The notes under the pieces were generated by a model, which had not been told where the DNA came from, did not search any database, and saw only the letters and a program-made list of their open reading frames with translations. From Sporichthyaceae bacterium (GTDB lineage: Bacteria > Actinomycetota > Actinomycetes > Sporichthyales > Sporichthyaceae), in NCBI GenBank assembly GCA_052388275.1, contig JBQTII010000081.1, forward strand, positions 1,353-65,352: a stretch of DNA of 64,000 nt. Direction: 5' to 3'. The first letter of the stretch is position 1; the number at the start of each line of letters is the position of its first letter. The position numbers and the translations under genes were made by a program. Shown here piece by piece: positions 27,919 to 47,456 of the stretch.

Positions 27919-27948
27919 GCGCCCGCGCCGCAAGGGCAAGGAGTTCGG

Positions 27949-28587: not shown

Positions 28588-28641
28588 CCGCCCATCCGCG
28601 CCCGCCCGATCCACGTCCACGAGCCCGCCTTGAGGAGAATC

Positions 28642-33309: not shown

Positions 33310-34886
33310 GACGTCACGGTAACCGCGTTTGAGCGGATCCGCCGGGAGGTCCGGCGCAGCAGGGCCGCGCCGACCAGGATCGCCGCCGGCAAGGCACCGA
33401 GCCACTCCGGCCAGGCACCCAGGCGGGTGGCGAGCGTGCGGGCACTGCGCAGCGGGACCTCCGCGACCAGCACATCAGCGGTGAACTCGGCCGTGCGCTC
33501 GATGACCTCGCCGTCGGGAGCGATCACCGCGCTCACCCCGGAGGTGGCCGCGATGAGCATCGCGCGTCCGTGCTCGATGGAGCGCAGCCGGGATATCGCC
33601 AGCTGCTGCTCGGGTTGCCCGGTGCGACCATAGGTGGCGTTGTTGGTCTGCACCACCAGCAGCCGTCCGCCGCCGCGCACGGTGTCGCGCACCAGGTCGT
33701 CGTAGGCGACCTCGAAGCAGATCACCGCCCCGATCCGGGTGCCGGCCACCGCCAGCACCCCCGGCTCGGTGCCGGGCAGGAAGTCGCGCGGGATCAGCGC
33801 AAGGCGTCCGATGAACTTGGTCAGCACGGCCCGGCCGGGGATGTACTCCCCGAAGGGCACCAGGTGCCGCTTGCTGTACCGCGCCCCGGCCCCGTGCTCG
33901 GGTGAGAAGACGATGCCGGTGTTGGTCAGGCGGTTCTCCCCGGCGTCCAGCAGGGTGCCCACCAGCAGCGGCGCACCGAGGTCATCGACCACGGCACTGA
34001 TCCGCTGCCCCAGCACGGGGTCGGTGAACGGGTCGTCGTCGGAGGCGTTCTCCGGCCAGATCACCCGGGCGGGTGCGCGCACCCGACCGGCGCGAATGTC
34101 GGCGGCCAACGCGGCCGTGGCATTGAGGTGGTTGGTGAGGACCGCGTCGCGCTGGCCGGCGATGTCGAAGCCCAAACGCGGCACGTTGCCTTGGACCACG
34201 GCGGTCACCAGGGTGTCCTGCCCGGCGGTCGGTAGCGGGATCAGGACACCCAGGCCGAGCAGGGCGAGCACTGAGCCGGCCGGCACAGTCAACGCCGCGT
34301 GGCGTCGGGTTGGGCGGGCCCGCGCAGCGAGGAAGAACGCCGCGGCGCCGATGCCGACCCCGGCGGTGGCCGCGCTCACCGCGGGACTGCCACCCCACGC
34401 GGCGAAGGCGGCCAGCGGCCCGTCCACTGCGGCGAAGGCGAGCTTGCCCCAGGGCAGCCCGCCCAGGGGGTAGCGGGCCCGCAACGCCTCGACCAGGAGC
34501 CAGCCGCTCACGTGCCACAGCGGCCACGCGCGTCTGGTGGCCGTAGCGGCCAGGTAGGCCCCCAACGGTGCGTAGAAGGCCGCCTGCAGGGCGCTGAGCA
34601 TGATCATGGCGTCCCAGCCGATGACGCGCAGCCAGCGCAACAGGACAAGAAAGAACACCAGAGCGAAGGCAGCACCGAGCTGGGCGCCGCGACGTGCACT
34701 CATCCCCCGGGTGGCCAGGCTCAGCCCCGCCACCGCGACGAAGGCCAGCGGCCAGGCGCCGAACGGCGGGAAGGCCAGCGCGAGCAGCAAGCCGAGCACG
34801 CATACCGCCAGCAGGCGCACGCCCTCCCCGCGGGTCCAGGGTGAGCGGGTGGCGCGCGGGGATCGGGATCGGGCGCCGCGTCTCAC
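33306..34886 (-). CDS. lnt: Apolipoprotein N-acyltransferase
   Basis: N-terminal polytopic domain ([15 protein letters not shown]) plus a C-terminal nitrilase-type CN-hydrolase domain ([22 protein letters not shown]). The start is uncertain: GTG at 34886 or 34820. The ORF-track N-terminal extension overlaps the opposite-strand gene. Confidence 0.85.
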
Positions 34887-35031
34887 CCGCGCACCGTATC
34901 CCGGGCGAAACGGTCGTGCCGCTGCTAAATTAAACTCACCCAATTGGCTTTCTTTCCGGTCGCTGCCCGACCGGAAGCTGACCTCCGCGTACCGATGCCC
35001 CCGGTGCCGCCACGCTGATTGAGGACCGTGG

Positions 35032-36066
35032 GTGGATATCGATCCGATGCTGGCGCTGGCCGGTGTGTTCGTCGGGTTCATCGTCGGCCTGACCGGGATG
35101 GGCGGCGGGGCGCTGATGACCCCCGTGCTGGTGATCTTCTTCAACGTCAACCCACTTACCGCGGTCTCCAGTGACCTGGTGGTCTCGCTGATCATGAAAC
35201 CCGTGGGTGGGGCCGTGCACGCGCGCCGGGGCACCGTGAACAAGCCTCTGGTGCTCTGGTTGTGCGTCGGGTCGATCCGCTGCGCCTTCCTCGGGGTGCT
35301 GCTGCTCAAGTGGCTGGGCGGCGATGATGCTCAGCTCCAGGACCTGGTCAAGACCTCGCTGGGAGTGGCGCTGCTGGCCGCGTCCGCCGGCATCGTGCTC
35401 AAGGCCTTGCAGTCGATGCGCCAGCGCGCCCGCTACGGGAACGTCGCCCTGCCGCCGGTCATCGTGCGCCCGATTCCCACGATGATCGTCGGCGCCATCG
35501 GCGGGGTGATCGTGGGCATGACCTCGGTCGGGTCCGGCTCGCTGATCATCGTCGCGTTGCTGTTCCTCAACCCGGGCCTGAAGGCGGCCGAGATCGTCGG
35601 GACCGACCTGGTGCAGGCGGTCCCCCTGGTCGGCGCCGCGGCGATCGGTCACCTGCTCTTCGGCGACTTCGAGGCCGAACTCACCACCTCGATCCTGATC
35701 GGGGCGCTGCCCGGGGTGTACGTCGGTGCCCGGGTCTCCTCCCGGGCCTCGCAGTCGATCATCCGCCGCGCGCTGGTCGTGGTTCTGGTCGCCTCCGCGC
35801 TGAAGCTACTGGGCGCCTCGAACGAGATGTTGCTGCTGCTGCTCGCGATCGCGCTGCTGAGCGGTCCCCTGCTCTGGGCGCTCGCCCGGCACACCGCAGG
35901 GTTCACCCGCCGCCCGGCCCCGCTGGACCGGGGGGCCGCGCTGCGCCTGTTCGCGGGGGCCGCGATCGGGCGACGCGTCGGGGTTCGCCAGGACGCTGCG
36001 GCGCCGGTCTCGACGACGGCATCGGGCGGGTCCCGCGAACCTGACGAACCGTCAGATCAACGCTGA
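35032..36066 (+). CDS. TauE/SafE family (sulfite/anion exporter-like) membrane protein
   Basis: VGLTGMGGGALMTP and GMTSVGSGSLII repeats typical of the DUF81/TauE family. About 8 TM helices. Non-conserved C-terminal tail. Confidence 0.75.
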   Translation: MDIDPMLALAGVFVGFIVGLTGMGGGALMTPVLVIFFNVNPLTAVSSDLVVSLIMKPVGGAVHARRGTVNKPLVLWLCVGSIRCAFLGVLLLKWLGGDDAQLQDLVKTSLGVALLAASAGIVLKALQSMRQRARYGNVALPPVIVRPIPTMIVGAIGGVIVGMTSVGSGSLIIVALLFLNPGLKAAEIVGTDLVQAVPLVGAAAIGHLLFGDFEAELTTSILIGALPGVYVGARVSSRASQSIIRRALVVVLVASALKLLGASNEMLLLLLAIALLSGPLLWALARHTAGFTRRPAPLDRGAALRLFAGAAIGRRVGVRQDAAAPVSTTASGGSREPDEPSDQR

Positions 36067-36081
36067 TTCTCGCAGGGGCGA

Positions 36082-36112
36082 CGGTCCGGACGGAAGGCCT
36101 CCGTCCGGACCG
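36082..36112 (+). terminator. Stem-loop terminator after the TauE-like gene
   Basis: CGGTCCGGACGGA, loop AGGCC, TCCGTCCGGACCG. This is a 13-bp perfect stem 16 nt after the stop. Confidence 0.65.
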
Positions 36113-36440
36113 TGCCATGTGCACCTCACTCACGCGAGCGGGATCCGGAAGGCCTTCGAACCGAGCGTGCGCCCGATGGATGCGGGGCCACGCGTCGTTG
36201 TCTACTGGCGTTCCGGATCCCACCCGGGTCCAGCCCCCGCGGCGGTTTCTGCGATGCTCGGACAACGGGGACGCGGGTTTTTTACTAGTCCAGGTCGCCA
36301 ACGATCAAGGCGACGTTGACCTGCGACGATGAAGAACACTGCAGGTCACACGCACACAGATTCGAGATGATCAATCCGGAAATTTCAGTGCGTCGCGGCG
36401 TGTCGCGACATCGATTGCTCCATTCGGGTTGGAGGCAGGT

Positions 36441-37502
36441 GTGCACGTGCTCGTCACCGGCGGCGCCGGGTTCATCGGCTCCCACATCGTGAGTGCACTC
36501 GCGCATCGTGGGCACCAGGTGCGGGTGCTGGATTCCCTGCTCCCGGCGGTGCATCCGGTTGCGACGACACTGCCCACGGACGCGGAGTTCCGCCGCGGTG
36601 ATCTGCGCGACGTCGCCGCGGTCGCCCACGCGCTGGAGGGCATCGACGCGGTGTGTCATCAGGCGGCGATGGTGGGCCTGGGCCTCAACCTCGACGATGC
36701 GCCGGACTACGTCGGCGCGAACGATCTCGGCACTGCGGTGCTGCTCGCCGCGATGGCCCGTACCCGGATCGCGCGCCTCGTGCTCGCCTCCTCGATGGTC
36801 GTCTACGGCGAGGGGCGCTACGCCTGCCAGTTGCACGGCCACACGCCCGCCGCCCCGCGGCAGGTCGCTGACCTCGAAGCGGGCCGTTTCGAACCGCGGT
36901 GTTCCTGTGGACGCGTACTCTGCCCCGAACTCGTGGACGAGAGCGCCCCACTTGACCCGCGCAACGTCTATGCCGCGACCAAGGTTGCCCAGGAACATCT
37001 GTGCGCTGCCTGGGCGCGCGCCACCGGCGGCCGGGTCGCCGCCCTGCGTTACCACAACGTCTACGGCCCACGGATGCCGCGGGACACCCCGTACGCAGGG
37101 GTGGCCGCCATCTTCCGCTCCGCCCTCGCCGACTCCCGGCCACCGCAGGTCTTCGAGGACGGCGCGATGCGCCGAGACTTCGTGCACGTGCGCGATGTCG
37201 CCGGCGCCAACCTCGCCGCCCTCGCCGCCCTCACCGCCGATGGCGGACCGATCGCGGCCGGGACACTACGCCCCTACAACGTGGGCAGCGGGACCGTACG
37301 TACCGTGGCAGAGCTGGCCCGGGCACTCTCGGTGGCCTGCGGTGGACCCGCGCCGGTGGTGACCGGGGCCTATCGGCTCGGGGACGTGCGCCACATCACC
37401 GCGAGTTCGGACCGGCTGCGCGCCGAGCTGGGCTGGCGGGTGAGCGAAGACTTCACCGCAGGGATGGCGGAGTTCGCCGCGGCCCCGCTACGCGGCAGCT
37501 GA
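36441..37502 (+). CDS. NAD-dependent epimerase/dehydratase (extended SDR) with a Cys-rich insertion
   Basis: VLVTGGAGFIGSH Rossmann motif and YAATK (YxxxK). GGAGG at 36431-36435 precedes GTG at 36441. Confidence 0.85.
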   Translation: MHVLVTGGAGFIGSHIVSALAHRGHQVRVLDSLLPAVHPVATTLPTDAEFRRGDLRDVAAVAHALEGIDAVCHQAAMVGLGLNLDDAPDYVGANDLGTAVLLAAMARTRIARLVLASSMVVYGEGRYACQLHGHTPAAPRQVADLEAGRFEPRCSCGRVLCPELVDESAPLDPRNVYAATKVAQEHLCAAWARATGGRVAALRYHNVYGPRMPRDTPYAGVAAIFRSALADSRPPQVFEDGAMRRDFVHVRDVAGANLAALAALTADGGPIAAGTLRPYNVGSGTVRTVAELARALSVACGGPAPVVTGAYRLGDVRHITASSDRLRAELGWRVSEDFTAGMAEFAAAPLRGS

Positions 37503-37509
37503 GTGCCCG

Positions 37510-38646
37510 TCAGGCCGCCAGCGCCGGGAGCTGAACCTCGAAGCGGCAGCCACCGCCCACGTTGACCACAGTGATCTCCCCCGCGTGCGCCTCCACGATC
37601 CCCCGCACGATCGCCAGCCCCAACCCGGCCCCGCCATCGCGTCCCGGGGTGCGCGCATTCGTCCCCCGCCAGGCCACGTCAAAGACGCGAGCGAGATCGG
37701 GCTCCGGGATGCCACCGCAGCCGTCGGTGACCGTGATGCGGGCCCGGCCCTCGGCGCGGTCCAGGTGAATCTCGACCGTCCCGTCGGCCGGGGTGTGTCG
37801 GATGGCGTTCACCACCAGGTTGCTCATCAGCCGGGACAGCTCCCGGCCGTCAGCCCGCACGGCCACGTCGGTCAGGGCATGACCGCGCAGCGTGATCCCG
37901 CGTTCGCGAGCGAGCGCATCCGCCCCGGCCAGGGTGTCCGAGACCAGATCGGAGAGCGAGATACGTTCCAGGGTCAACTTCAGGGCGCCGGCGTGGATGA
38001 CGGAGAGTTCGAAGAGATCGTCGACCATCGCGGCGAGGCGATCGACCTCCATCCGGATCTGCTTGCGGTAACGGTCCGGATCGCTCGCGACGCCGTCCTC
38101 CAATGCCTCGGCCATCGCACGCATCCCGGCCAGCGGGGTGCGCAGATCGTGTGAGACCCAGGCGACGAGCTCGCGGCGCGAGGACTCAAGCGCGTTCGCC
38201 CGATCCCGGGACTCGGCCAGGCGGGTGCGCGCGGCCTCCAGCTCCCGGCTGAGCTCGGTGAACTCCGAGGACATCCGATGCCGACCCCGTGAGGTGGACT
38301 GACCGGGGGTGAGGCGCCCGATGTCGCCGATCGCCCGGGCCTCGGCGGTCAGCACCCGGCTGCCGGCCGCGAACGTACGGGCCAACGCGAACGAGACCCC
38401 GGTCATCAGCAGCGCGACCACGACGCTGACCATGATCACCACGTCGAAATCGTGACTCGACAGGAACATCGCGTGCGCCGTGCCGACCGTCGCGGCGATC
38501 ATCGCGGCGACGGTCGTCAGGCAGAGCGTGAGCAGCGCGGCCCGCAACGAGCGATGGCGCAGGCGGCGCAGCAGCGTGAGCCCCAGGATGGCCACCGCGC
38601 CGGACCAGGCCAGCGCGATCAGCACGACCTCGACCTTCTCGTTCAC
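37510..38646 (-). CDS. Sensor histidine kinase (2 TM, HAMP, HisKA, HATPase_c)
   Basis: H-box VSHDLRTPLAG, N-box VVNAIRHTP, G-boxes DGCGGIP and GGAGLGLAIV. GTGA overlap with the response regulator stop. Confidence 0.9.
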   Translation of the reverse strand: MNEKVEVVLIALAWSGAVAILGLTLLRRLRHRSLRAALLTLCLTTVAAMIAATVGTAHAMFLSSHDFDVVIMVSVVVALLMTGVSFALARTFAAGSRVLTAEARAIGDIGRLTPGQSTSRGRHRMSSEFTELSRELEAARTRLAESRDRANALESSRRELVAWVSHDLRTPLAGMRAMAEALEDGVASDPDRYRKQIRMEVDRLAAMVDDLFELSVIHAGALKLTLERISLSDLVSDTLAGADALARERGITLRGHALTDVAVRADGRELSRLMSNLVVNAIRHTPADGTVEIHLDRAEGRARITVTDGCGGIPEPDLARVFDVAWRGTNARTPGRDGGAGLGLAIVRGIVEAHAGEITVVNVGGGCRFEVQLPALAA

Positions 38647-39407
38647 AGCCGCACGTCCTGGGCCGAGGTCGGCTCGTCGGCCGCGGGGTGATCGCCGCCC
38701 TCGCCCGGGGGATCAAAGCGGTAGCCCACCCCCCATACCGTGACCAGCATCTGCGGGTTCGCGGGGTCCTGCTCCACCTTCTCCCGCAGGCGGCGCATGT
38801 GCACGGTGACGGTGGACTGGTCCCCGAACTCCCAGCCCCACACCGTGCGCATGAGTTCTTCGCGGGTGAAGGCCTGCCCGGGATGCGCGAGCAGGAAGGC
38901 GAGCAGGTCGAACTCACGCGCCGTCAGGGCCAGCTCGAGGCCACCTTTGCTCACCCGATGTCCGATGACGTCGACCCGCAGCGACCCGCTCTCCAGTACG
39001 CTGGGCCCCTCGCAGGCCGCGGGATCGGGACCGGTTGCCCGGCGCAGCACCGAACGTACCCGCAGGGTGAGTTCACGGGGGCTGAACGGCTTGGTGACGT
39101 AGTCGTCGGCCCCGACCTCCAAACCGAGGACGCGATCGTTCTCGCCCCCGAGCGCGGTGAGCATGATCACCGGTACCGGCGCGGTGGCCCGCAGCCGGCG
39201 GCAAACCTCGAGCCCGTCGATGCCGGGGAGCATGAGGTCCAGCACCACCAGGTCGGGCCACGCCCGCGCGGCCGCCGCCAGCGCCTGGGCCCCGTCCGCC
39301 GCATGGATCACCTCGTACCCGGCATTGCGCAGATAGGTGGACACGACCTCGGCGATGGTGAGGTCATCCTCGACCACGAGGACGCGCGGCGTACTCGGCG
39401 TGTTCAT
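38643..39407 (-). CDS. OmpR-family response regulator
   Basis: VLVVEDD...DLVVLDLMLPG.DG, and the winged-helix part LT.REFDLLAFLL.HPG..F.RE.L...VWG. Confidence 0.9.
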   Translation of the reverse strand: MNTPSTPRVLVVEDDLTIAEVVSTYLRNAGYEVIHAADGAQALAAAARAWPDLVVLDLMLPGIDGLEVCRRLRATAPVPVIMLTALGGENDRVLGLEVGADDYVTKPFSPRELTLRVRSVLRRATGPDPAACEGPSVLESGSLRVDVIGHRVSKGGLELALTAREFDLLAFLLAHPGQAFTREELMRTVWGWEFGDQSTVTVHMRRLREKVEQDPANPQMLVTVWGVGYRFDPPGEGGDHPAADEPTSAQDVRL

Positions 39408-39493
39408 GGCGAGGTACTCAGCGGGTGCCCTTGGCGCATGCTCGCGAGTTTAGGGGCCGTCAGCTCCCCGCTAAACCGATCACCACGCCGCGT

Positions 39494-39540
39494 CAGCAGA
39501 CCGTAAGGGCATCGCCGGGAACCTGGCAGCAGTTCGTAAC
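39494..39540. promoter_or_regulatory. Direct repeat CAGCAGaCCGTAAG / CAGCAGtTCGTAAC spaced 33 bp, in the divergent RR / GT2-operon promoter region
   Basis: Read directly; 11 of 14 positions are identical. Located between the response regulator start (39407) and the GT2 start (39586). Confidence 0.35.
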
Positions 39541-39585
39541 AACGCACCGAAGGTTTCGCCTCACCACTGACCCTACCGTGGGGTC

Positions 39586-40281
39586 ATGCCTTCATCGTTG
39601 CCCGCAGACCCTCGTGAGCACCGCACCGTCCCTGCCCAGGTCGACGTCGTGCTGCCGTGCCTGAACGAGGCCGCCGCGCTGCCGTGGGTGCTGGAACGCT
39701 TCCCCGCCTGGGCTCGACCGATCGTCGTCGACAACGCCAGCAACGACGCCAGCGCCCGGATCGCCGCCGAGCTGGGCGCGTTGGTCGTGCGCGAGGAGCG
39801 GCGCGGGTTCGGGGCCGCCGCACACGCCGGGCTGCTCGCCGCCAGTGCCCCGATCGTGGCGTTCTGCGACGCGGACGCTTCGATGGATCCCCGCGAACTG
39901 CATCTGGTGGTCGAACCGATCCAGGCCGGCCGGGCGGACCTGGTCCTTGGCCGGCGGGTGCCACGGCCCGGGTCGTGGCCTGCCCATGCCCGCATCGCCA
40001 ACCGGGCACTCGGGGCGCTGCTCGGCCGGCGGGCGGGCCTGCGGTTGCGAGACCTGGGCCCGATGCGGGCCGCCCGCAGGACCGACCTACTCGACCTGAA
40101 TCTGATGGACCGTCGGTTCGGCTATCCACTGGAGATGGTGGTCGTTGCGGCGCGCGCCAGGTGGCGGATCGTCGAGGTTGACACGAGCTATCACCCACGA
40201 ATCGGGCGCTCCAAGGTCACCGGGACACTGCGCGGCACGCTGCGGACCGTCAAAGACATGAGCGCGGTGCTGGCCCGGTGA
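39586..40281 (+). CDS. Glycosyltransferase family 2 (polyprenyl-phosphate sugar synthase-like; Rv0539-like)
   Basis: VDVVLPCLNEA, VVDNASNDAS, FCDADASMDP (DxD), VLGRR. Confidence 0.85.
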   Translation: MPSSLPADPREHRTVPAQVDVVLPCLNEAAALPWVLERFPAWARPIVVDNASNDASARIAAELGALVVREERRGFGAAAHAGLLAASAPIVAFCDADASMDPRELHLVVEPIQAGRADLVLGRRVPRPGSWPAHARIANRALGALLGRRAGLRLRDLGPMRAARRTDLLDLNLMDRRFGYPLEMVVVAARARWRIVEVDTSYHPRIGRSKVTGTLRGTLRTVKDMSAVLAR

Positions 40282-40922
40282 AAGACGCCGGCGAGTTGAC
40301 GATCGTCGTGATGGCCAAAGAGCCCGTTGCGGGCCGGGTCAAGACCCGGTTGAGTCCACCGTTCACCCCCGAGCAGGCCGCGGCGCTCGCCGAGGCCGCC
40401 TTGCGCGACACCCTGGACACGGTCGTCCTCGCCCCGGCTACGCGCCGAGTGCTCTGCCTGGACGGCACTGCGGGCCGCTGGCTGCCGCCCGGGTTCGACG
40501 TGCTACCGCAATGCGCCGGCTCCTTGGACGAGCGACTGGCCGGGGCGCTCGCGGGCTGCTGCGGGCCGACGCTCATCATCGGCATGGACACCCCACAACT
40601 GAGCTCCCATCACCTGCACCTGACCTGGAGCACCTACGACGCATGGCTAGGGCCGGCCTGCGACGGCGGCTACTGGGGCATCGCTGTGCGCAACCCTGAC
40701 CCGGCGTTGCTCCTCGGCGTACCCATGTCGAGCGCGCACACCGGCGCCGCACAACTGAGCAGGCTGACCGGCGCGGGGCTGCGAACGGGGCTGTTGGCAA
40801 CCTTGCGCGACGTCGACACCGCAGAGGATGCGGCCGCGGTCGCCGCCCTGTGTCCGCAGAGCCGGTTCGGGCGCCGGCACCGCACCTTCGCCGCGGAAGT
40901 GGCGATCGCAGATGTCTGTTGA
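40278..40922 (+). CDS. DUF2064 family protein (TIGR04282-type; Rv0540-like)
   Basis: VVMAKEPVAGRVKTRLSPPFTPEQAA.L..A.L.DT, IGMDTPQL, GPA.DGGYW. GTGA overlap with the GT2 stop. Confidence 0.8.
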   Translation: MKDAGELTIVVMAKEPVAGRVKTRLSPPFTPEQAAALAEAALRDTLDTVVLAPATRRVLCLDGTAGRWLPPGFDVLPQCAGSLDERLAGALAGCCGPTLIIGMDTPQLSSHHLHLTWSTYDAWLGPACDGGYWGIAVRNPDPALLLGVPMSSAHTGAAQLSRLTGAGLRTGLLATLRDVDTAEDAAAVAALCPQSRFGRRHRTFAAEVAIADVC

Positions 40923-41568
40923 CACCCTGCCCTGGGCCGGCGATGTCCTCGCGGAATACCAGGACGCATTGTGGTCCGAGGTCGCGATGACCGTTCGCGA
41001 CTGTAGCGGCCGAGCGCTGCCCTTCGACATCCCGCGCTGGAGCGCGCAGGCCGATACCGCCGACCAGAGCATGCTGGCGCGCTGCGAGGGACCGACCTTG
41101 GACATCGGCTGCGGGCCGGGCCGTCTGGTCGCCGCGCTGGCCCACCGGGGCCTACCGGCACTCGGTGTGGATATCGCCCCAGCGGCGGTAGCCCTCACCC
41201 GTGCCGGGGGTGCGAGCGCGCTGCGCCGCTCGGTCTTCGACCCCCTTCCCGGCGAGGGCCGCTGGCGCTTCGCGCTGCTCGCCGACGGCAACATCGGCAT
41301 CGGTGGCAACGCAGCGAGACTGCTCGGGCGGGTGCGCGAGTTACTGGCGCCGGGCGGGGTGGTGCTCATTGAGGCCGACCCGCACGGCCGGACCGAGACC
41401 GTCCTGGCCACTGTGCACTCGCCGGAGAATCGACCGGCGGCGACTTTTCCGTGGCTGCACATCAGCGCCCCCGATGTCTGCGTCGTGGGAGCGGGCCTGG
41501 GCCTGACCCTGGCCGAGACCTGGTCATCGGGCGGACGATGCTTTGTCGCGCTACGGAAGGCGGAGTAA
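40912..41568 (+). CDS. Class I SAM-dependent methyltransferase
   Basis: Motif I LDIGCGPGRL. Post-I GVDIAP. ATG at 40912 overlaps the upstream gene by 11 nt. Confidence 0.8.
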   Translation: MSVDTLPWAGDVLAEYQDALWSEVAMTVRDCSGRALPFDIPRWSAQADTADQSMLARCEGPTLDIGCGPGRLVAALAHRGLPALGVDIAPAAVALTRAGGASALRRSVFDPLPGEGRWRFALLADGNIGIGGNAARLLGRVRELLAPGGVVLIEADPHGRTETVLATVHSPENRPAATFPWLHISAPDVCVVGAGLGLTLAETWSSGGRCFVALRKAE

Positions 41569-42837
41569 ATGCTCGGCACACCGCCCGGCCCGTTCCGGGC
41601 CGGTTTCTGGCGCAGCCCGATCCGCGGGCCCTGGATCACCTCCGTACTCGGCGCACTATTGCTCATCGGGATCCCGGTCATGTTCGCGACCGGGATGCTG
41701 TCCTACCTCGCGTACAACCCGTGGCTGCCGGGTAACGACGAGCGCCACGGCAGCGGCGTGTTGACCTTCATCCCCTTCCACTGGCCGGCCAGTCCGGCGT
41801 GGGGGTACCGCTTCACCCAGGGACTGCACGTGTGCCTCGGGGTGATCCTGATCCCGGTCCTGCTGGCCAAGCTGTGGTCGGTCATCCCGAAGCTGTTCGC
41901 CTGGCCGCCGGTCCGCTCGCCGGCCCACGCCCTGGAACGACTGTCGTTGTTCCTGCTCGTCGGCGGCGCCCTGTTCACCTTCGCCACCGGCCTGCTCAAC
42001 ATCCAGTACTGGTACCGCTTCCCCGGCTCGTTCTACGTCCTGCACTTCTACGGCGCCTGGGTGTTCATCGCGGCGTTCTTTGCTCATGCGGCGCTCAAGA
42101 TCCCGCTGATGGTCGCCACCCTGCGGGCGCGGCCGCTACGCGCGGAACTGCGCGTCGACCTGGCCCGCACCGAGCCGGAGCCGTACCCCGAGGATGGGCT
42201 GGTCAGTTCCGATCCGGCGCCGCCCTCGGTGTCCCGCCGAGGGGTCCTCGGCCTGGTCGGAGCCGGTAGCGCCGCCATGGCCGTCGTGATGGCGGGGCAG
42301 TCGATCGGCGGACCGCTACGCCGGATCTCGGTGCTCGCCCCGCGCGGCGGCTTCACCGAGGGCAGCGGGCCGAACGATTTCCAGGTCAACATCACCGCCG
42401 GCGAGGCGCAGATCACGGCCTCGCAGGTCGGTGCCGGCTGGCGGCTGGAACTGGCGGGCGGACGCGCTCGGGTCGTACTGACCCGTGATCAGCTGCTGGC
42501 GATGACCCTGTACACCGCGAACCTGCCGATCGCCTGCGTCGAGGGTTGGTCGACCGGCAATCAACGCTGGGAGGGCGTGCGCCTGCGCGACCTGGCGGCC
42601 CTGGCTGGATCGCAGGATCCGGGGTCGGTGTTCGTCGAGTCGCTGCAGTCCGGCGGGTCGTTCTCGCGGGGCCGCCTGGCGGGTAATCAGATCGCGCACC
42701 CGGACAGCCTGCTCGCGCTGCGCGTCAACGGCGTCGACCTATCGATGGACCACGGCTTTCCGGCGCGGGTGATCGTCCCCAACAACCCCGGGGTGCGCAA
42801 CACCAAGTGGGTCAACCGTCTCACCTTCGAGGCCTGA
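41569..42837 (+). CDS. Membrane cytochrome-b-like domain fused to a molybdopterin-dependent (SUOX-fold) oxidoreductase domain
   Basis: N-terminal ~190 aa with 4-5 TM helices carrying conserved-looking His (GLHVCLG, HFYGAW, FFAHAAL). C-terminal PIACVEGWS...WEGVRLRDL...LLALRVNG..L...HGFPARVIVP...G..NTKWV. The ATG directly follows the upstream TAA. Confidence 0.8.
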   Translation: MLGTPPGPFRAGFWRSPIRGPWITSVLGALLLIGIPVMFATGMLSYLAYNPWLPGNDERHGSGVLTFIPFHWPASPAWGYRFTQGLHVCLGVILIPVLLAKLWSVIPKLFAWPPVRSPAHALERLSLFLLVGGALFTFATGLLNIQYWYRFPGSFYVLHFYGAWVFIAAFFAHAALKIPLMVATLRARPLRAELRVDLARTEPEPYPEDGLVSSDPAPPSVSRRGVLGLVGAGSAAMAVVMAGQSIGGPLRRISVLAPRGGFTEGSGPNDFQVNITAGEAQITASQVGAGWRLELAGGRARVVLTRDQLLAMTLYTANLPIACVEGWSTGNQRWEGVRLRDLAALAGSQDPGSVFVESLQSGGSFSRGRLAGNQIAHPDSLLALRVNGVDLSMDHGFPARVIVPNNPGVRNTKWVNRLTFEA

Positions 42838-42841
42838 GGCC

Positions 42842-43336
42842 GTGTCCCCCACCCTGCGCCCGCCCGGCCCACGACCCGGTGTCGAGAGGATCCGGCGCCG
42901 CTACGGCGCCCACCCCGCACACCTGCTCGTCCTGGCCGGCGCCCTGGCCATCGCCCTGATCGCCGGCAGGCCCCTGCTCGATGAAGGAGGCCTGGAGGTG
43001 GTCATCTGGTTCGCGGGCTCCGCGATCCTGCACGACGCCGTGTTCGTCATGGCCTACATCGGCGCCGACTCGCTGCTCGTGCGAGCGTGGCGCCGACGCC
43101 CCGGCCGGGTAGCGTGGATCAACTTTGTCCGGGTACCGGCCGCGATCTCCGCGATCATGTTCGTTGTCTACTCGCCGGTGATCCTCGGCAAGGCGACCTC
43201 GTTCCAGAGCAAGACCCTGCGCTCGACGGACGCCTATCTTGGGCACTGGCTGCTGGTCAGCGCGGTGCTCGCCGGGATCTCCCTGACGGCCTACCTCGCC
43301 CGGGTGCTGGTGGTGGCGTGGCGGCGCCGGCAATGA
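42842..43336 (+). CDS. Hypothetical polytopic membrane protein (about 4 TM)
   Basis: Hydrophobic segments. 4-nt gap after the upstream gene and ATGA overlap with the downstream gene. No motif recognised. Confidence 0.6.
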   Translation: MSPTLRPPGPRPGVERIRRRYGAHPAHLLVLAGALAIALIAGRPLLDEGGLEVVIWFAGSAILHDAVFVMAYIGADSLLVRAWRRRPGRVAWINFVRVPAAISAIMFVVYSPVILGKATSFQSKTLRSTDAYLGHWLLVSAVLAGISLTAYLARVLVVAWRRRQ

Positions 43337-44787
43337 GCTCGGAGAACGCGCCCGAGGTGAGGCCCAGGAACCTGCGCCCTCGCCTGCTGGTGATCGCGGC
43401 ACTGCTGGCCCTCGGCGGTCAGGTCGCGTTCGAGGTCGCCGCGCTGAGCATGGGCGATCCGGGCCGAGAGGGCGCCTCGCGCATCCTGCTCCGCTACGCC
43501 GGGGCGGCGGTGGCGTTCGTCGCCGGGGCACTGGTGGTGCGCGCCCTGCCGGTGCGCACCTCCGTGGCGCTCAGCCTGGCCGGCGGCGCGCTGCTGCAGG
43601 TGATCGCGGTCGGCTACTCCCCCACCACCACGGACGATTTCTGGCGCTACCTGTGGGACGGCAAGGTCCAGGCCGCGGGGATCAATCCCTACCGCTACAC
43701 CCCGCTCGATCCCGCCCTGCTCGCCTTGCGTGAGGCCGAGTTGTTCCCCCCCGACACCCGCACACCGGAGCAGGCCGCGAGCGCCGTCGCCGAAAAGCGA
43801 ACCGACCCCTGCACCTCCCGTGGGGTGCCCCACGACTGCACACTGATCAACCGCCCGAACGTGAACACGATCTATCCACCGGTGGCCGAGGCCGCCTTTC
43901 TCGGCCTGCACCACCTTTCCCCCGCCGATCACCGCGTCCGCAGCCTGCAGATCGCGCTTGCGCTGGTGGCGCTCGCCGTCGCCTTGGCGCTGATGTGGGC
44001 GAGGCACCGCGCCGGCCGGGACCCTAGGGCCGCGGTGTGGTGGACCTGGTGCCCGGTGGTGTGGTTGGAGGCATCGAACAACGCCCACATTGACGTGCTC
44101 GCCGTGCTGCTGGTGGTCACGACGTTCGGGGTGCTCGCGGGGGCTGGCGGTGACCCAAGTCGGCGGCGGCTGGCCGCAGCGGGAGCCCTCTTCGGCGGCG
44201 CCGTGGCGGTGAAGTTCGTCCCCGTGCTGATCGCGCCGGCGCTGCTGATCCGCCGGGGTCACCTCCTGCTCGGGGCCGCCGCGGCCCTGTTCGCTCTCAG
44301 CTACCTCCCGCACGTCCTCGCCGTGGGCAGCGATGTGCTCGGGTACCTGCCCGGCTACCTCGACGAAGAGGGCTACTCCGGAGCCCAGCGCTTCGGGCTG
44401 GTGCGCCTGGTGGTTCCGGACCAGTTGGCTCCCGCGGCTGTGGTGGTGATCGGCGCGGGTCTCGCTGCGCTCGTCTGGCGCCAGGGGTGTTCGCACGTGT
44501 CGGCGCCAGACGCGCTTCTGCTCACCGGCACCGCCTTTCTCCTCGTCGGCCCGAGCCAACCCTGGTACGCCGTCCTGCTCGTGGCGCTGGTTGCCCTGGC
44601 GGACCGCCCGCAGTGGCTGGCCGTCGCGGCCGCGGGCTATCCCGTCTACCAGGCCGGACACCTGGGCGTGGACAACGCGCTGATGCAGCAGTGGGCCTAC
44701 GGCAGTGCCGCGGTGTTGGTCGTCCTCTTCGCCTGGGCTCGGCGGTCGGGAGCGGTGGAGCACCCGGAGAGATCAGAGGCCCTCTGA
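43333..44787 (+). CDS. GT87/DUF2029 family polyprenyl-phosphate-sugar-dependent glycosyltransferase (GT-C; Rv0541c/PimE-like)
   Basis: Many TM helices. First extracytoplasmic loop SPTTTDDFWRYLWDGKV...GINPY and VKF.P. Confidence 0.75.
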   Translation: MSSENAPEVRPRNLRPRLLVIAALLALGGQVAFEVAALSMGDPGREGASRILLRYAGAAVAFVAGALVVRALPVRTSVALSLAGGALLQVIAVGYSPTTTDDFWRYLWDGKVQAAGINPYRYTPLDPALLALREAELFPPDTRTPEQAASAVAEKRTDPCTSRGVPHDCTLINRPNVNTIYPPVAEAAFLGLHHLSPADHRVRSLQIALALVALAVALALMWARHRAGRDPRAAVWWTWCPVVWLEASNNAHIDVLAVLLVVTTFGVLAGAGGDPSRRRLAAAGALFGGAVAVKFVPVLIAPALLIRRGHLLLGAAAALFALSYLPHVLAVGSDVLGYLPGYLDEEGYSGAQRFGLVRLVVPDQLAPAAVVVIGAGLAALVWRQGCSHVSAPDALLLTGTAFLLVGPSQPWYAVLLVALVALADRPQWLAVAAAGYPVYQAGHLGVDNALMQQWAYGSAAVLVVLFAWARRSGAVEHPERSEAL

Positions 44788-44986
44788 ATGGCCTAGCACA
44801 ACTGGATCTCAAAGTACAAGGACGGTTTAGCCCGCTCGTGCGTCTCACCGAATTCGTCGCGTTGCGGTGCTGCGAGCTTGGAACGCGGTCAAAGAGCGGC
44901 ATTTAGCGGCCGATACACCGAGCAAGGCCGAACGACGGTTGACGTCACGCGCGTACAGCTTCTTGTCCGACATCTCTGGGGGGTCC

Positions 44987-46336
44987 ATGAGAATCAGTTT
45001 CACCATGCAGGTCAGCGCAATCTTGATTGGCGTGAGTGTGTCCGGCCTGGCCGGCCTCTCCCAAGCCTCGGGGGCGTTACAGGCCTCGGCGGACGGCTGC
45101 CGCGTCGACGATGGCCGGGCATTGGCCGAGTTTGCAGAACGGGACAACACAACTGAAATCTTCCAGCATGAGCGCTGGCTGCTCTCCGACGGCGCCCAAG
45201 AGAACAAGCGTTCCGTCGATGCGGCCATTGCACAACGCTTCGGTGACAACACCAAGTCGGAGTTGCACAGGACCCTCGCGGCAGGTCTGATTGGGGTTGG
45301 CCCTGATCACCGGGCTCAGCAGTTGGTGGTTCTAGTCGACCCAAAGAAGGTCAACGTGGCCGAACTGCAGACGGAGTTGCGCACCCGTGCTTCCAATGCG
45401 TCGCGCTCGCGCCCAGAGAACGGTCCCCCCATCGGTATCAGAGTGCAGGCCGGATGCCATGGCAGCGACGAATTGATCAAGGCTGACCAGATCATCGCCG
45501 AGAGGGCCTGGCACCCGCGTGCAGGCACCACCGCCCTCTTCAGCATGGTCGACGCGACTACGTCCACCGTAAAGGTGAGCTTCAACATGAGTGACCGCGA
45601 GGCCGCGGAGGCCCTTCAAGCAACACTAGGACCTGTCGTGACAGTCGAACTCAACGGCGGCGGAGTACGAGACAAGATCCGAACCAACGACACATGGAGC
45701 AGTTCGGTCGGACATTGGGGCGGCGCAGAGATTACGAATGGAAACGTCGCCTGCACGTCCGGATTCGCTGTGGACACGCCCACCGCTGGGAAAGCGTTTG
45801 TGACCGCTGGGCACTGCTTCGACAACGGCGAGGCCATCAGCTCAGGTTCGAGCTCGTACGGAACCGCTCAAGGAGAATACGACTTTCCGGTGTACGACAT
45901 GATACTCCTCAACGGCAACATCAACTACGACGACGACATTTACCACACCACGGATCCCAACGCTAATGAAACCTCGCCGATTGACGTCACGGGCCACGCG
46001 AACGGCAGCGCAGGTGAAGGCGTGTGTATCAGCGGCCAGAATACGGGGCGGCGCTGCGGTGCGACAATCGTCGACCCGAGCGGGGGCCGAGTCTGTGATT
46101 CCGCCCGCTGTACATCCGGCCTCGTCGTGATCCAGAAGATCGGTGACCAGATTTGTCAACCCGGCGACTCCGGAGCCCCTTACTACAGGAGAAATTCCGA
46201 CGACACCCAGGCCTCCATCCGGGGCTTGCATGTCGGCAGGCCAACTGGCTACACCTTCAGCGGGCAGACGTGTGCGGGCGAACGCCCATCCAGTGTGGAG
46301 AGCCACCTCGACGTGGAGATCGCGAGCTCGCCTTGA
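44987..46336 (+). CDS. Secreted S1 (alpha-lytic protease/streptogrisin-type) serine protease precursor
   Basis: Signal peptide, then a ~230-aa pro-region. Catalytic His in TAGHC, Asp in YDMILL, Ser in GDSGAP. Paired cysteines. Lies in a low-GC stretch. Confidence 0.85.
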   Translation: MRISFTMQVSAILIGVSVSGLAGLSQASGALQASADGCRVDDGRALAEFAERDNTTEIFQHERWLLSDGAQENKRSVDAAIAQRFGDNTKSELHRTLAAGLIGVGPDHRAQQLVVLVDPKKVNVAELQTELRTRASNASRSRPENGPPIGIRVQAGCHGSDELIKADQIIAERAWHPRAGTTALFSMVDATTSTVKVSFNMSDREAAEALQATLGPVVTVELNGGGVRDKIRTNDTWSSSVGHWGGAEITNGNVACTSGFAVDTPTAGKAFVTAGHCFDNGEAISSGSSSYGTAQGEYDFPVYDMILLNGNINYDDDIYHTTDPNANETSPIDVTGHANGSAGEGVCISGQNTGRRCGATIVDPSGGRVCDSARCTSGLVVIQKIGDQICQPGDSGAPYYRRNSDDTQASIRGLHVGRPTGYTFSGQTCAGERPSSVESHLDVEIASSP

Positions 46337-46693
46337 CCGCCGCCCGCGACTGCCTCTCGTGCCTGCCTCCAGGGCAACCTGAGAAGAGGCACCACCGAGG
46401 CACCCTGCTGTTCTCGCGCCCCGGCGGAGTGCGGGTTCGGCTGGGCGCTGTGCTGCAAAGTTGCCTATCGTTGAACGACCAGTGCCGAGTCAGACCGTGT
46501 GTTCTTGGCCCAGATGCAGCCCTGATGGATATCCGCGGCAGCGTCGACGCCGACAGTAGGGAGCGAATAAGTGAATGCCACTAACGGCTTTCCGGATTCT
46601 CGGCTGGGCGCAACTCCAGCGAACTACGGCTCCTGGCCGCTATGGCCAAGAGGTTGGCTGCAGTCTGGTCGGCGGTCTCGGCAGCGCAAGCGT

Positions 46694-47377
46694 GTGCATC
46701 GCGTTGGAAGTGCATTCGGGGTCCTGACTGTCGTCGCGCTGGCGCTCACGGCCTGCGGCACTCTTGCTTCCGATTCATCCAAGAATCAATCGTCGGCTCT
46801 GGTTACGGAACTCGAGGGGCGCATGCCTCGCTGCGCAATACCCGCGCTGCGCTCGCCCGAGGACCAGCGGTGGGTCACATCGGGCGCTCCTCAACAGGTC
46901 CTCGCCCAGACCGAGAAGGTGCTGAGCAATGAAGTGGGTGTCGCCACCAAGGAGGATCCTCACGTAAGGCTGAGGAATGGATTGATAGGCGTAACACCAG
47001 ATCCGATGGACAGAGAAATCGTCGTTGTCGTTGATCCTGAGGTCATTGATATGAAGCGGCTTGAAAAGGACCTGCAAGACCAGCTTGGTTCGTCAGGTCC
47101 TCCAGTCGTCGTGCAAGAAGGATGTCACAGTGCGGCAGAACTAGTGCATGCGTCACAAATCATTGCGGAGGGTCGCTGGATTCCAAATTCGGCCGAAATA
47201 TCTTATGGTTCCTATCTGGACGCCGGCAGTGCACAATACCGCTTAACGATCTCTGACAGCGGTGAGGGTAAGTCTGCCGGACGGTCGCTTAAAGAAGAAC
47301 TCGGTGACTTGGTGGCTATTTCATATGGCGACGTAGGGCGCGATGTAGAGCGCCGGCCCGCTAACAAGTCACCCTAA
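46694..47377 (+). CDS. Lipoprotein homologous to the pro-domain of the adjacent S1 protease (no protease domain)
   Basis: Lipobox LALTAC. GLIGVTPDPMDREIVVVVDPEVIDMKRLEKDL and VVVQEGCHSAAELVHASQIIAEGRWIP align with GLIGVGPDHRAQQLVVLVDPKKVNVAELQTEL and IRVQAGCHGSDELIKADQIIAERAWHP of the protease. The start is uncertain (ORF is open from 46571). Confidence 0.7.
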   Translation: MHRVGSAFGVLTVVALALTACGTLASDSSKNQSSALVTELEGRMPRCAIPALRSPEDQRWVTSGAPQQVLAQTEKVLSNEVGVATKEDPHVRLRNGLIGVTPDPMDREIVVVVDPEVIDMKRLEKDLQDQLGSSGPPVVVQEGCHSAAELVHASQIIAEGRWIPNSAEISYGSYLDAGSAQYRLTISDSGEGKSAGRSLKEELGDLVAISYGDVGRDVERRPANKSP

Positions 47378-47456
47378 GATTGCACATCGCTCGATGGCCC
47401 TGCAGTTCGCATGCGGCTCGACCGGCAGAAAATGACGATCGCCGCCGGATCGGGGA

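Follow-up and report, generated by a model that had tools for sequence, protein, structure and literature searches.

Gene content of the locus

The window, a 64,000-nucleotide stretch of contig JBQTII010000081.1 from a Sporichthyaceae bacterium, carries nine genes at 36429-44787, and an ORF check of the sequence reproduced the coordinates and strands of the first-pass annotation. The genes and the regulatory features between them are as follows.

36429..37502, +, extended-SDR NDP-sugar epimerase (Pfam Epimerase, 162 bits)
37510..38646, -, histidine kinase (HK; HisKA and HATPase_c)
38643..39407, -, OmpR-family response regulator (RR; Response_reg and Trans_reg_C)
39491..39506, +, operator-like direct repeat CGTCAGCAGACCGTAA in the divergent RR-GT2 spacer, half-sites 11 bp apart
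39527-39539, weaker copy of the operator-like repeat, CAGCAGTTCGTAA, in the same spacer
39574..39579, +, -10-like hexamer TACCGT, 6 nt before the GT2 ATG
39586..40281, +, soluble GT2 of the polyprenyl-phosphate sugar synthase type (Glycos_transf_2, 68 bits)
40278..40922, +, DUF2064 protein, a CofC-like putative nucleotidyltransferase (Pfam DUF2064, 67.7 bits)
40912..41568, +, class I SAM-dependent methyltransferase-fold protein (Pfam Methyltransf_23/12/25)
41569..42837, +, Sco3746-type membrane oxidoreductase with TM helices and a Mo domain (Oxidored_molyb, 81 bits)
42842..43336, +, small four-helix membrane protein of 164 aa, constant partner of the Mo protein
43333..44787, +, GT87-family GT-C glycosyltransferase (Pfam GT87, 36.1 bits; cut-off 25)

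All Pfam matches of the window proteins exceed the gathering score. The family calls made earlier were upheld by Pfam and NCBIfam profile searches, with neither the Oxidored_molyb nor the DUF2064 ORF reassigned, and every peptide motif that had been quoted was found in the translations. The tight junctions reported for the operon likewise lie where they had been placed: the GT2 and DUF2064 genes share a GTGA (40278-40281), the DUF2064 and methyltransferase genes overlap by 11 nt (40912-40922), the methyltransferase TAA is followed by the ATG of the Mo gene (41566-41571), a 4-nt gap (42838-42841) separates the Mo gene from that of the small membrane protein, and the latter meets the GT87 gene at an ATGA (43333-43336). 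Tight junctions are retained in two other Sporichthyaceae genomes, and the junction geometry, as read from sequence, suggests that the operon genes are translationally coupled. The RR gene overlaps the HK gene by 4 nt and is separated from the GT2 gene by a spacer of 178 bp (39408-39585). A gene of the TauE/SafE sulfite-exporter family lies upstream, both in the window and at locus L005.

Two starts deserve comment. The epimerase may begin at TTG 36429 or GTG 36441. The DUF2064 start is ambiguous, and the NCBI model of an identical protein (P0121, 203 aa) implies an ATG 33 nt further in; however, a strand TxLVxAK upstream of this internal ATG is kept in the homologue alignment, which favours the GTG start, with its GTGA overlap, of the earlier annotation.

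The epimerase has GalE-like matches in the PDB, in two blocks flanking a family-specific insertion that is conserved across homologues and contains three invariant Cys. The top matches of the GT2 are AglJ and dolichyl-phosphate hexose transferase in NCBIfam, and dolichol-phosphate mannose synthase and ArnC in the PDB. The DUF2064 protein scores 116.5 bits against TIGR04282, under the cut-off of 134, and 39.6 bits against CofC in NCBIfam; its PDB match is 3cgx. PDB relatives of the methyltransferase are generic only. The first outer loop of the GT87 protein carries a DD motif (TTDDFWRY). Natural fusions in other organisms (GT87-GT2 and GT87-GT2-DUF2064-GT2) support a tie between the glycosyltransferases and DUF2064. 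The GT-C partner itself varies: an unrelated PMT_2-like protein of ~450 aa, found in Streptomyces and Mycobacteriales, substitutes for GT87 in most other lineages, and a comparison of the window GT87 with the Mycobacteriales form of this ~450-aa protein detected no similarity.

The membrane Mo protein and its small partner

The N-terminal part of the Mo protein is a four-helix cytochrome-b-like domain with His87, His159 and His173, followed by a cytoplasmic linker; a twin-arginine SRRG (aa 222-225), a fifth helix (aa 223-246) and a SUOX-fold Mo domain with Cys323 in CVEGWS complete the protein. Four or five helices had been proposed at first; the structure model has five, which leaves the higher count standing and not the lower. 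The twin-arginine, the three His and the Cys are invariant in the alignment, and these residues and the five helices match the mapped topology of Sco3746, whose membrane topology and Tat-dependent Mo-domain export were determined experimentally (PMC5449189). By analogy, the Mo domain of the window protein is predicted to face outward. The 164-aa partner has no match in Pfam, NCBIfam or the PDB, although its alignment shows conserved YGxxPxHLL and WxxGxxxxHD motifs, and its gene adjoins the Mo gene in ~75 of 80 Mo-seeded loci.

Sequence, profile and structure comparisons show no greater similarity of the Mo domain to MsrP than to sulfite oxidases, and Foldseek matches to sulfite oxidase and YedY/MsrP are about equal. 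In sequence searches sulfite oxidases come out on top (E 1e-9), and the NCBIfam SorT, SorA and SoxC models score about 31 bits. Together with the TauE/SafE-family gene upstream in the window and L005, these matches would fit a membrane-bound sulfite dehydrogenase with no relation to sugars, its role being the detoxification of exported sulfite with the quinone pool as electron acceptor. We nevertheless consider such an activity very improbable: the scores fall far under the equivalog cut-offs of 420-600 bits, the protein ends immediately behind the Mo domain and lacks a dimerisation domain, its Cys motif is CVEGWS, which we take to be that of YedY where sulfite oxidases have CAGNRR, and the Streptomyces, Nocardia and Tsukamurella clusters contain no TauE gene. 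Our tentative assignment is an enzyme that reduces a sulfoxide in the envelope, which is possible rather than probable.

Linkage across Actinomycetota and a common operator-like repeat

Among 65 full-flank genome loci seeded with DUF2064, the epimerase gene is present in 65, GT2 in 64, the methyltransferase in 64 (following DUF2064 in 64/65), Mo in 57 and HK/RR in 54, counts that overstate the number of independent events because most of these loci are from Streptomyces. Co-occurrence of the genes exceeds chance. A search seeded with the Mo enzyme (80 loci from soil metagenomes) returns the same partners; the informative loci include 27 with glycosylation genes, 15 with the two-component system only and one with neither. 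The linkage is seen in Streptomyces, Sporichthya, Nocardia, Tsukamurella, Nonomuraea and Patulibacter; it crosses order boundaries within Actinomycetota and includes one genome of Thermoleophilia. The genes stay linked in at least three arrangements: the Mo gene lies inside the operon in Sporichthyaceae, Patulibacter and Mycobacteriales, the Streptomyces arrangement is convergent, and a Trebonia-like order runs RR-GT-C-Mo-TM4-HK. The expectation of conserved neighbourhoods is therefore borne out for co-occurrence but not for a fixed gene order, and the cluster is widespread, from Streptomyces to Nocardia, rather than a local oddity.

A direct repeat with the consensus CGTCx-N6-CGTxA precedes the GT2 operon and the epimerase gene, and also the Mo gene where this is a separate transcription unit. 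Every one of the 64 RR-GT2 spacers has the CGTAAG core of this repeat on the GT2 strand, whereas the background frequency of the core is 0.07 per kb per strand. The repeat was found before GT2 in 60 loci, before Mo on its own strand in 48/72, and inverted before the epimerase in ~45 loci; in Mycobacteriales (Tsukamurella and a Mycobacteriaceae MAG) the same repeat precedes both GT2 and epimerase. The strict pattern fails in a Streptosporangiales-like metagenome group, although a looser TT[CT]GTAAGG core holds there. A consensus promoter scan found nothing, and the GT2 start has no Shine-Dalgarno sequence; judged from its sequence context, the GT2 transcript is probably leaderless. Mo genes of Streptomyces and epimerase genes from metagenomes show the same upstream layout as the window GT2 gene, TAnnnT followed by 6-7 nt and ATG.

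Across lineages the kinase has three N-terminal membrane helices and no extracytoplasmic domain, helices 2 and 3 enclosing an invariant AxAMFLSxHD motif. The regulator falls under all NCBIfam equivalog cut-offs, MtrA and HprR included. The want of an outer sensing domain, the many loci in which a single transcription unit has Mo and its partner flanked by RR and HK, and the occurrence of PruR, pterin-binding sensor proteins of the SUOX fold, among the structural matches would be in keeping with the Mo-haem protein and its partner acting as a redox- or pterin-type sensory input to the kinase that switches the glycan pathway on. We find this improbable: no variation is seen in the Mo-ligand Cys, the haem-ligand His residues or the Tat motif, which is what a functional redox enzyme would show, and the Streptomyces Mo operon has its own operator-like motif and would therefore be an output of the two-component system.

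Linkage, fusions and the common operator-like motif support the earlier proposal of one functional unit with a divergent two-component system, and we hold it highly likely that the cluster is such a unit. Two biochemically independent modules could nevertheless be merely co-regulated by a stress-responsive system, sharing no substrate, with the Mo-haem protein a reductase for general repair outside the cytoplasm, methionine sulfoxide of exported proteins being one example of a substrate, and the glycosylation genes making an unrelated surface decoration. The Mo and small membrane protein pair also occurs without glycosylation genes in Streptomyces and Modestobacter, so that the Mo fusion is not confined to a glycosylation context; Rv0218 of M. 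tuberculosis is likewise apart from such genes, judged by gene number; the two-component system is linked to Mo at least as tightly as the glycosylation genes are; and E. coli msrPQ adjoins its own two-component system without glycosylation genes. Against this, one tightly packed operon in Sporichthyaceae has Mo and its partner placed after the methyltransferase and before the GT-C, and in Nocardia, Tsukamurella and Patulibacter the two come directly 3' of the methyltransferase; a GT-C adjoins Mo in three different architectures, and does so in 48/49 Streptomyces-type loci and 41/80 Mo-seeded loci; and co-location outlasts repeated rearrangement. Mere co-regulation is on the unlikely side, albeit a real contender.

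A proposed two-arm regulon and its relation to known systems

The best overall explanation, to which we give about an even chance, is a two-arm actinobacterial regulon under one two-component system. In arm 1, the DUF2064 protein would nucleotide-activate a sugar 1-phosphate, the epimerase would invert one sugar centre, the methyltransferase-fold protein would act at some cytoplasmic step, and the GT2, judged by its family, would place the sugar onto polyprenyl phosphate; after flipping, the GT-C (GT87 here) would add it to an outer envelope acceptor. That arm 1 works as such a lipid-linked sugar decoration pathway we think reasonably probable. In the other arm, electrons from the quinol pool would pass through the cytochrome-b-like domain to the Mo centre on the outer face, which, MsrP-like, would reduce an oxygenated sulfur group. 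The preferred target is a sulfoxide of an arm 1 thioether sugar, and the second choice is oxidised methionine of exported proteins; even so, we rate it as rather unlikely that the enzyme acts on the sugar of its own cluster. Sensing by the kinase probably takes place in or at the membrane, via the invariant AMFLSxHD loop, and the regulator would act on each transcription unit by binding the direct repeats, spaced 11 bp apart, upstream of it.

The Rv0539-Rv0541c neighbourhood of M. tuberculosis, at first described as uncharacterised, is the methylthioxylose (MTX) capping pathway: Rv0539 is MtxS, which makes the polyprenyl-phosphate methylthioxylose donor, and Rv0541c is MtxT, which transfers methylthioxylose to LAM caps (PMC12088412; PMC8780516). 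In its enzyme families arm 1 is built like this pathway, with MtxS, Rv0540, GalE3 and MtxT as putative counterparts. Because that neighbourhood makes methylthioxylose, it becomes a testable idea that arm 1 makes a thioether sugar and that a sulfoxide reductase uses it as substrate. In NCBIfam, arsenosugars are the only other annotated context of DUF2064 with GT2. The family of Rv0540 is presumably DUF2064, and we know of no other characterised pathway than MTX with an adjacent GT2-DUF2064 pair. MTX and arsenosugars are both 5-deoxy-5-heteroatom pentoses derived from S-adenosylmethionine.

The sugar could also be O-methylated or otherwise ordinary, the MTX likeness reflecting common enzyme families only. 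A SAM methyltransferase is present, and no MTA phosphorylase gene was found in the cluster gene tables, Sporichthyaceae, Streptomyces, Nocardia and Tsukamurella being among those inspected; the GT-C family is interchangeable, and the GT2, SDR epimerase and GT-C families are all very common. DUF2064 is, however, rare as a GT2 partner, both of its known contexts involve the heteroatom pentoses, and the cluster is linked to a sulfoxide-reductase-like enzyme. We regard an ordinary sugar as doubtful, though it merits serious consideration.

In the literature searched, no characterised pathway unites a Mo enzyme with these glycosyltransferase parts, and the earlier statement to that effect stands. 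Relative to the proposed regulon, the M. tuberculosis MTX cluster has, to our knowledge, no methyltransferase, Mo enzyme or two-component system, and the Mo homologue Rv0218 lies elsewhere. Expression of msrPQ in E. coli is controlled by a two-component system, YedVW/HprSR, in which the kinase has a redox switch based on methionine.

Gene content and family assignments

The window has a G+C content of 70% and is actinobacterial sequence, and in our ORF list and translations the cluster's nine genes stand at the coordinates proposed in the first-pass annotation. An epimerase gene (+) is followed by a histidine kinase and response regulator pair (-), whose genes share a 4-nt overlap, and then by six (+) genes for a GT2 protein, a DUF2064 protein, a methyltransferase, the Mo protein, a small transmembrane (TM) protein and a GT87 protein. 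The junctions reported between these six genes (GTGA, an 11-nt overlap, TAA/ATG, a 4-nt gap and ATGA) were confirmed base by base.

Located features of the cluster
36429-37502 (+), epimerase
39491-39506, operator-like repeat CGTCAGCAGACCGTAA, with a weaker copy 36 bp downstream
41569-42837 (+), Mo protein, with five membrane helices and a SUOX-fold Mo domain
42842-43336 (+), 164-aa small TM partner of the Mo protein

Profile-HMM searches returned the families assigned earlier, above the Pfam gathering score, for all proteins but one; the 164-aa membrane protein has no match in Pfam, NCBIfam or the PDB. The nearest NCBIfam relatives of the GT2 protein are archaeal dolichyl-phosphate hexose synthases, and its PDB sequence matches are dolichol-phosphate mannose synthase and ArnC. 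PDB sequence searches also matched the DUF2064 protein to 3cgx and the epimerase to GalE-like enzymes, returned only generic relatives of the methyltransferase, and gave no solved relative of the GT87 protein, which scores 36.1 bits with Pfam PF09594 (gathering score 25). The start of the DUF2064 gene is ambiguous, in that the NCBI model of an identical protein (P0121) is 11 residues shorter; the strand upstream of NCBI's start is conserved in homologues, which favors the GTGA overlap. Scans for consensus promoters and terminators found nothing within 36000-45200, and Rfam has no match within the window.

Natural fusion proteins recovered in an exhaustive GT2-seeded search join the GT2, DUF2064 and GT87 domains in several arrangements (GT87-GT2, GT2-DUF2064, DUF2064-GT2, GT2-DUF2064-GT2 and GT87-GT2-DUF2064-GT2), and thus place a lipid-sugar synthase, the DUF2064 protein and a GT-C enzyme in one pathway. 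The fusion proteins P0244, P0256, P0303, P0267 and P0268, all from outside the window, are up to 1143 aa long, and the second GT2 domain of the large ones has no counterpart in the window cluster. The GT-C enzyme itself differs among versions of the cluster: it is a GT87 in the window and a ~450-aa PMT_2-like protein in the Streptomyces and Mycobacteriales versions, which are 50% identical to each other and both unrelated in sequence to GT87.

Several features of the cluster and its flanks are noted in their own right. Residues ~131-169 of the epimerase form an insertion that is missing from GalE structures and kept in every lineage examined, with three invariant cysteines (C-x~26-C-x2-C) and a mostly conserved histidine, a pattern that suggests a zinc-ribbon-like site. 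Upstream, between the epimerase gene and a TauE gene, a non-coding block (36125-36240) is near-identical in the locus of a Sporichthyaceae relative (L005) despite divergence of the proteins on either side; it holds a long hairpin, GGATCCGGAA...TTCCGGATCC (-56 kcal/mol), with no Rfam match and not found in other loci. Downstream, between the GT87 gene and an InhA-like metalloprotease gene, the stretch 44800-47400 has a G+C content of 0.64-0.65 compared with ~0.70 and carries a trypsin-like protein (44867-46336) and an unassigned 268-aa ORF (46571-47377). Its absence from L005 indicates either an insertion in the window or a deletion in L005.

Conservation, linkage and operator-like repeats

Two other Sporichthyaceae genomes share the nine genes, their order and the tightness of the junctions. 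Relatives further afield were sought by a DUF2064-alignment scan with one genome per species, from which the closest 80 loci were taken; these are mostly from Streptomyces, and also from Herbidospora, Nonomuraea, Nocardiopsis, Trebonia, Actinorhabdospora, Streptantibioticus and Patulibacter. The window proteins were compared with these loci by tblastn, and the 65 loci with full flanks were counted.

Occurrence of window proteins (tblastn) at the 65 full-flank loci among the closest 80 DUF2064 loci; the many Streptomyces genomes inflate the counts, and the loci are not to be taken as independent events
Epimerase: 65/65
GT2: 64/65
Methyltransferase: 64/65
Mo protein: 57/65
Kinase and regulator: 54/65

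A search from one Nocardia homologue, itself recovered by the exhaustive search, showed this gene set in Nocardia, in Tsukamurella paurometabola and in a Mycobacteriaceae MAG, and reached also Gordonia and Rhodococcus. Gene order varies among lineages, as the Mo and partner genes lie inside the operon in the Sporichthyaceae, Patulibacter and the Mycobacteriales, past the methyltransferase gene and convergent in Streptomyces, and between regulator and kinase in the Trebonia-like group. That linkage is kept despite such rearrangement argues for function. The neighbourhood check proposed earlier thus finds the gene set linked in several actinobacterial lineages, and we conclude that the cluster is a real, widespread unit.

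In our reading the locus is a single, two-armed regulon. In the first, a sugar would be activated in the cytoplasm by the DUF2064 protein and then epimerised, with an additional step by the methyltransferase-fold protein; the GT2 enzyme would load it on polyprenyl phosphate, and the GT-C enzyme would transfer it outside the membrane. The second arm would consist of a quinol-linked Mo enzyme on the outer face with the small membrane partner beside it.

As the chief alternative, the arms may share their control and nothing more. The reverse search was seeded with the Mo protein in soil metagenomes. The small membrane protein adjoins the Mo protein in ~75/80 loci, and among those long enough to judge, 27 have the glycosylation genes, 15 have only the two-component system and one has neither. 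Stand-alone pairs of Mo protein and partner also occur, in one Streptomyces and one Modestobacter genome.

Three other genes lie beside the cluster in some genomes. An MsrB (SelR) gene lies beside the Streptomyces cluster at only 2 loci and was dismissed as coincidence, and the TauE gene beside the epimerase was rejected since it is limited to the Sporichthyaceae. A gene of the NADPH-dependent FMN reductase family (FMN_red) follows the small TM gene in Nocardia (L168 13682-14386), and another lies near the cluster in Sporichthya brevicatena (L004 2086-2835); such a gene may encode another redox partner, or its presence may be coincidental.

The spacers between regulator and GT2 genes share a short element. 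CGTAAG is present on the GT2 strand in 64/64 of them, where the background is 0.07 per kb per strand, and in the Streptomyces spacer consensus, CGACGTCCGnGTTTCGTAAGGA, the half-sites form a direct repeat spaced by 11 bp, as is typical for OmpR-family operators. A generalised pattern of the CGTCx-N6-CGTxA type occurs no more than 250 nt upstream of GT2 at 60 loci, upstream of the Mo gene and on its strand at 48/72 loci, and inverted just upstream of the epimerase gene at ~45 loci. CGTCA-N6-CGTCA stands 63 nt before GT2 in Tsukamurella and the Mycobacteriaceae MAG, and inverted before the epimerase gene in Tsukamurella and Nocardia. The adjacent response regulator is predicted to bind these repeats. 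The strict pattern does not serve as a general rule, as it fails in a Streptosporangiales-like group of the Mo-seeded metagenome set, where the core TT[CT]GTAAGG alone is left of it. At the GT2, Mo and epimerase genes a TAnnnT hexamer recurs 6-7 nt ahead of the start codon and a ribosome-binding site is missing, a layout that suggests leaderless transcripts.

At 31467-31482 (+), in the gap that separates the ABC ATPase gene from rbpA, lies a lone operator-like match, CGTCATCGCTTCGTCA; chance should give about this many in 64 kb, so that it probably carries no meaning.

The kinase has three helices and lacks an outer domain, and the AMFLSxHD sequence of its outer loop is invariant. The wider motif AxAMFLSxHD, at residues ~55-66, occupies the only outward-facing loop and is kept from the Sporichthyaceae to Streptomyces and in metagenomic relatives, which makes this loop a candidate signal-sensing site.

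The membrane molybdenum protein and its partner

A Sporichthyaceae MAG encodes a protein with 100% identity to the Mo protein, which was aligned with 34 homologues that are 63-88% identical to it. In its membrane domain His87, His159 and His173 are invariant, the latter two spaced by 14 residues as in cytochrome b561-type proteins; Arg223-Arg224 (SRRG), directly before helix 5, and Cys323 (CVEGWS) of the Mo domain are likewise invariant. The structural model has five helices (21-47, 77-111, 118-147, 156-187 and 223-246) and a confident C-terminal domain, which scores 81 bits with Pfam Oxidored_molyb and has SUOX-fold structural matches. There is thus good support for the fold, for the cofactor ligand and for an outward location.

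The protein belongs to the family of Sco3746, a haem b-Moco membrane protein of Streptomyces coelicolor that is inserted by both Sec and Tat (Tooke et al. 2017, PMC5449189). Five helices were demonstrated there by cysteine accessibility, and reporter fusions showed that the sequence past helix 5 is exported in a twin-arginine- and Tat-dependent manner; the authors predicted haem b ligation, with three of four histidines conserved and one variable, and named MsrPQ as a distant split relative (PMC5449189). All of the corresponding features are present in the window protein, namely five helices, the arginine pair before helix 5, three histidines in helices 2 and 4, and a C-terminal Mo domain. The Sco3746 study dealt with biogenesis only and reported no function or gene context (PMC5449189). 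SCO3740/SCO3741 is an unnamed kinase/regulator pair of S. coelicolor, and from gene numbering alone we infer that Sco3746 and this pair belong to that organism's copy of the cluster. M. tuberculosis Rv0218 also has this Mo architecture, at a locus distant from the methylthioxylose (MTX) genes, and one study cites a need for it for growth in mouse spleen.

The substrate class is less clearly indicated. Foldseek gave matches of about equal quality to sulfite oxidases, SorA/SorT, YedY/MsrP and PruR, and in the sequence search sulfite oxidase is slightly ahead in an alignment that covers 90 residues only (330-419). Scores with the equivalog models fall far below their cut-offs, both for MsrP (NF003767, 20.5 bits against 207; the PDB 1xdq sequence match has an E of 0.13) and for the sulfite-oxidising enzymes SO, SorA, SorT and SoxC (~31 bits against 420-600). 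The C-terminal dimerisation domain of sulfite-oxidising enzymes is absent, the protein ending at residue 422, right after the Mo domain. As in MsrP, a SUOX fold without dimerisation domain is predicted, from sequence and model, to be combined with Tat export. The membrane domain yields only faint Ni_hydr_CYTB and DUF4405 matches and no MsrQ-type partner.

Alignment of the small membrane partner reveals two conserved histidines, which may complete a haem or quinone site. A GtrA-like flippase role for it found no support, as it has no Pfam hit and accompanies the Mo protein even where glycosylation genes are missing. A second Mo subtype, ~40% identical and found in some Streptomyces and Herbidospora, has the same architecture and no small partner, and always adjoins a GT87 gene.

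Elsewhere in the window, ~8 kb upstream of the Mo enzyme, a molybdate-uptake-like operon (27499-31414, +) encodes a MerR-HTH and TOBE regulator, an unassigned 212-aa ORF, an SBP_bac_11 binding protein, a BPD_transp_1 permease and an ABC ATPase with TOBE. A SelO-family protein adenylyltransferase gene (24281-25765, +; Pfam SelO 361 bits) adjoins a short-chain dehydrogenase gene and is unrelated to the cluster.

Comparison with known systems

Searches of the literature on DUF2064, TIGR04282/3, SCO3742-3747 and actinobacterial MsrPQ found no functional study, and the earlier statement that no characterised pathway combines these parts agrees with the literature searched, which holds no functional description of the combination. 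If the parts cooperate, they constitute a conserved envelope modification system without reported function in Streptomyces, Nocardia, Tsukamurella and many soil Actinobacteria.

The first-pass interpretation was right in outline, speculative on what the Mo enzyme does, and outdated in regard to M. tuberculosis, where the resembling genes Rv0539-Rv0541c had been called uncharacterised: the lipid-linked methylthioxylose donor is the product of Rv0539 (MtxS), and Rv0541c is MtxT of MTX capping (PMC12088412; PMC8780516). An Rv0539 mutant has no MTX caps, and lipoarabinomannan (LAM) bears both MTX and its sulfoxide (MSX). Angala et al. are said to have described in 2017 an MTX cluster that also includes an MTA phosphorylase, Rv0535 (Pnp), an epimerase, Rv0536 (GalE3), and a putative nucleotidyltransferase, Rv0540, and reportedly considered it conserved in other Actinobacteria.

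In the specific reading that we find most appealing, itself doubtful, the cluster sugar would likewise be a thioether sugar and the Mo enzyme would reduce its sulfoxide. Of much the same low probability is the fuller proposal that many Actinobacteria carry on an envelope glycan a methionine-like, oxidant-scavenging methylthio-pentose like that of M. tuberculosis LAM, that the quinol-driven Mo enzyme of the Sco3746/Rv0218 family, on the outer face, reduces the methylsulfinyl sugar formed, and that the membrane-embedded methionine-loop kinase induces the regulon. Were this so, the decoration would be a renewable antioxidant shield, with a parallel to E. coli HprSR-MsrPQ acting on sugar rather than protein. 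If the parts do cooperate, a sugar decoration known chiefly from M. tuberculosis LAM, of which it forms a diagnostic epitope, would extend to much of the phylum; a first function would be given to a large family of membrane molybdoenzymes, Rv0218 included; and a regulon and operator would be assigned to an unnamed two-component system, probably SCO3740/3741.

MsrPQ resembles the proposed Mo arm in that a membrane haem b passes electrons of the respiratory chain on to an outward SUOX-fold Mo enzyme without dimerisation domain, and in the presence of an OmpR-type two-component system, HprSR (YedVW/HypVW) in E. coli, in which a methionine redox switch in the kinase controls the outward-facing Mo reductase MsrPQ. 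The window protein differs in fusing both parts in one polypeptide and in having a cytochrome b561-like membrane domain, not one of MsrQ type, and there is an extra small membrane subunit as well as linkage to glycosylation genes.

The TIGR04282/TIGR04283 arsenosugar pair is similar in that a DUF2064/CofC-like protein is paired with a GT2, and NCBI names P0121 as TIGR04282 family. The NCBIfam scores lie below the cut-offs, just short for DUF2064 (116.5 against 134) and far short for GT2 (37.2 against 182), and no radical SAM partner was seen in any gene table inspected. The name "arsenosugar biosynthesis" rests on context only.

In actinobacterial polyprenyl-phosphate-mannose pathways, too, a GT87 GT-C enzyme such as PimE is supplied by a GT2 lipid-sugar synthase, Ppm1. 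The window has a Ppm-type GT2 of its own, to which the cluster GT2 is ~30% identical; the tie of the latter to DUF2064 and the epimerase implies a different, dedicated sugar. This Ppm-type GT2 (32515-33405, -) provides another polyprenyl-phosphate sugar synthase, distinct from that of the cluster but near it, and with Lnt (apolipoprotein N-acyltransferase; 33306-35309, -) forms a pair 4 kb upstream that is a split form of mycobacterial Ppm1, with FxsA (32063-32605) and RbpA (31637-32059) beside it.

The closest parallel is with the MTX cluster. Both have a soluble GT2 gene followed directly by a DUF2064 gene (a match at family level only), a GalE-type SDR epimerase and a GT-C enzyme of possibly different type, and would share the route from nucleotide sugar to polyprenyl-phosphate sugar to transfer outside the membrane. 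In the MTX case the product is 5-deoxy-5-methylthio-xylofuranose on a lipoglycan. The Mycobacteriales also have relatives of the window cluster. The window cluster differs in that its GT-C is a GT87 and in its lack of an MTA phosphorylase, no gene for which appears in the gene tables of the inspected clusters or among the scanned flanking genes of the window; it adds the methyltransferase, the Mo-haem enzyme with its membrane partner, and the two-component system. We rate the window cluster as a putative MTX-type polyprenyl-phosphate sugar decoration cluster to which a Sco3746-type molybdoenzyme and a methyltransferase have been added, together with a two-component system of its own whose putative operator can be recognised.
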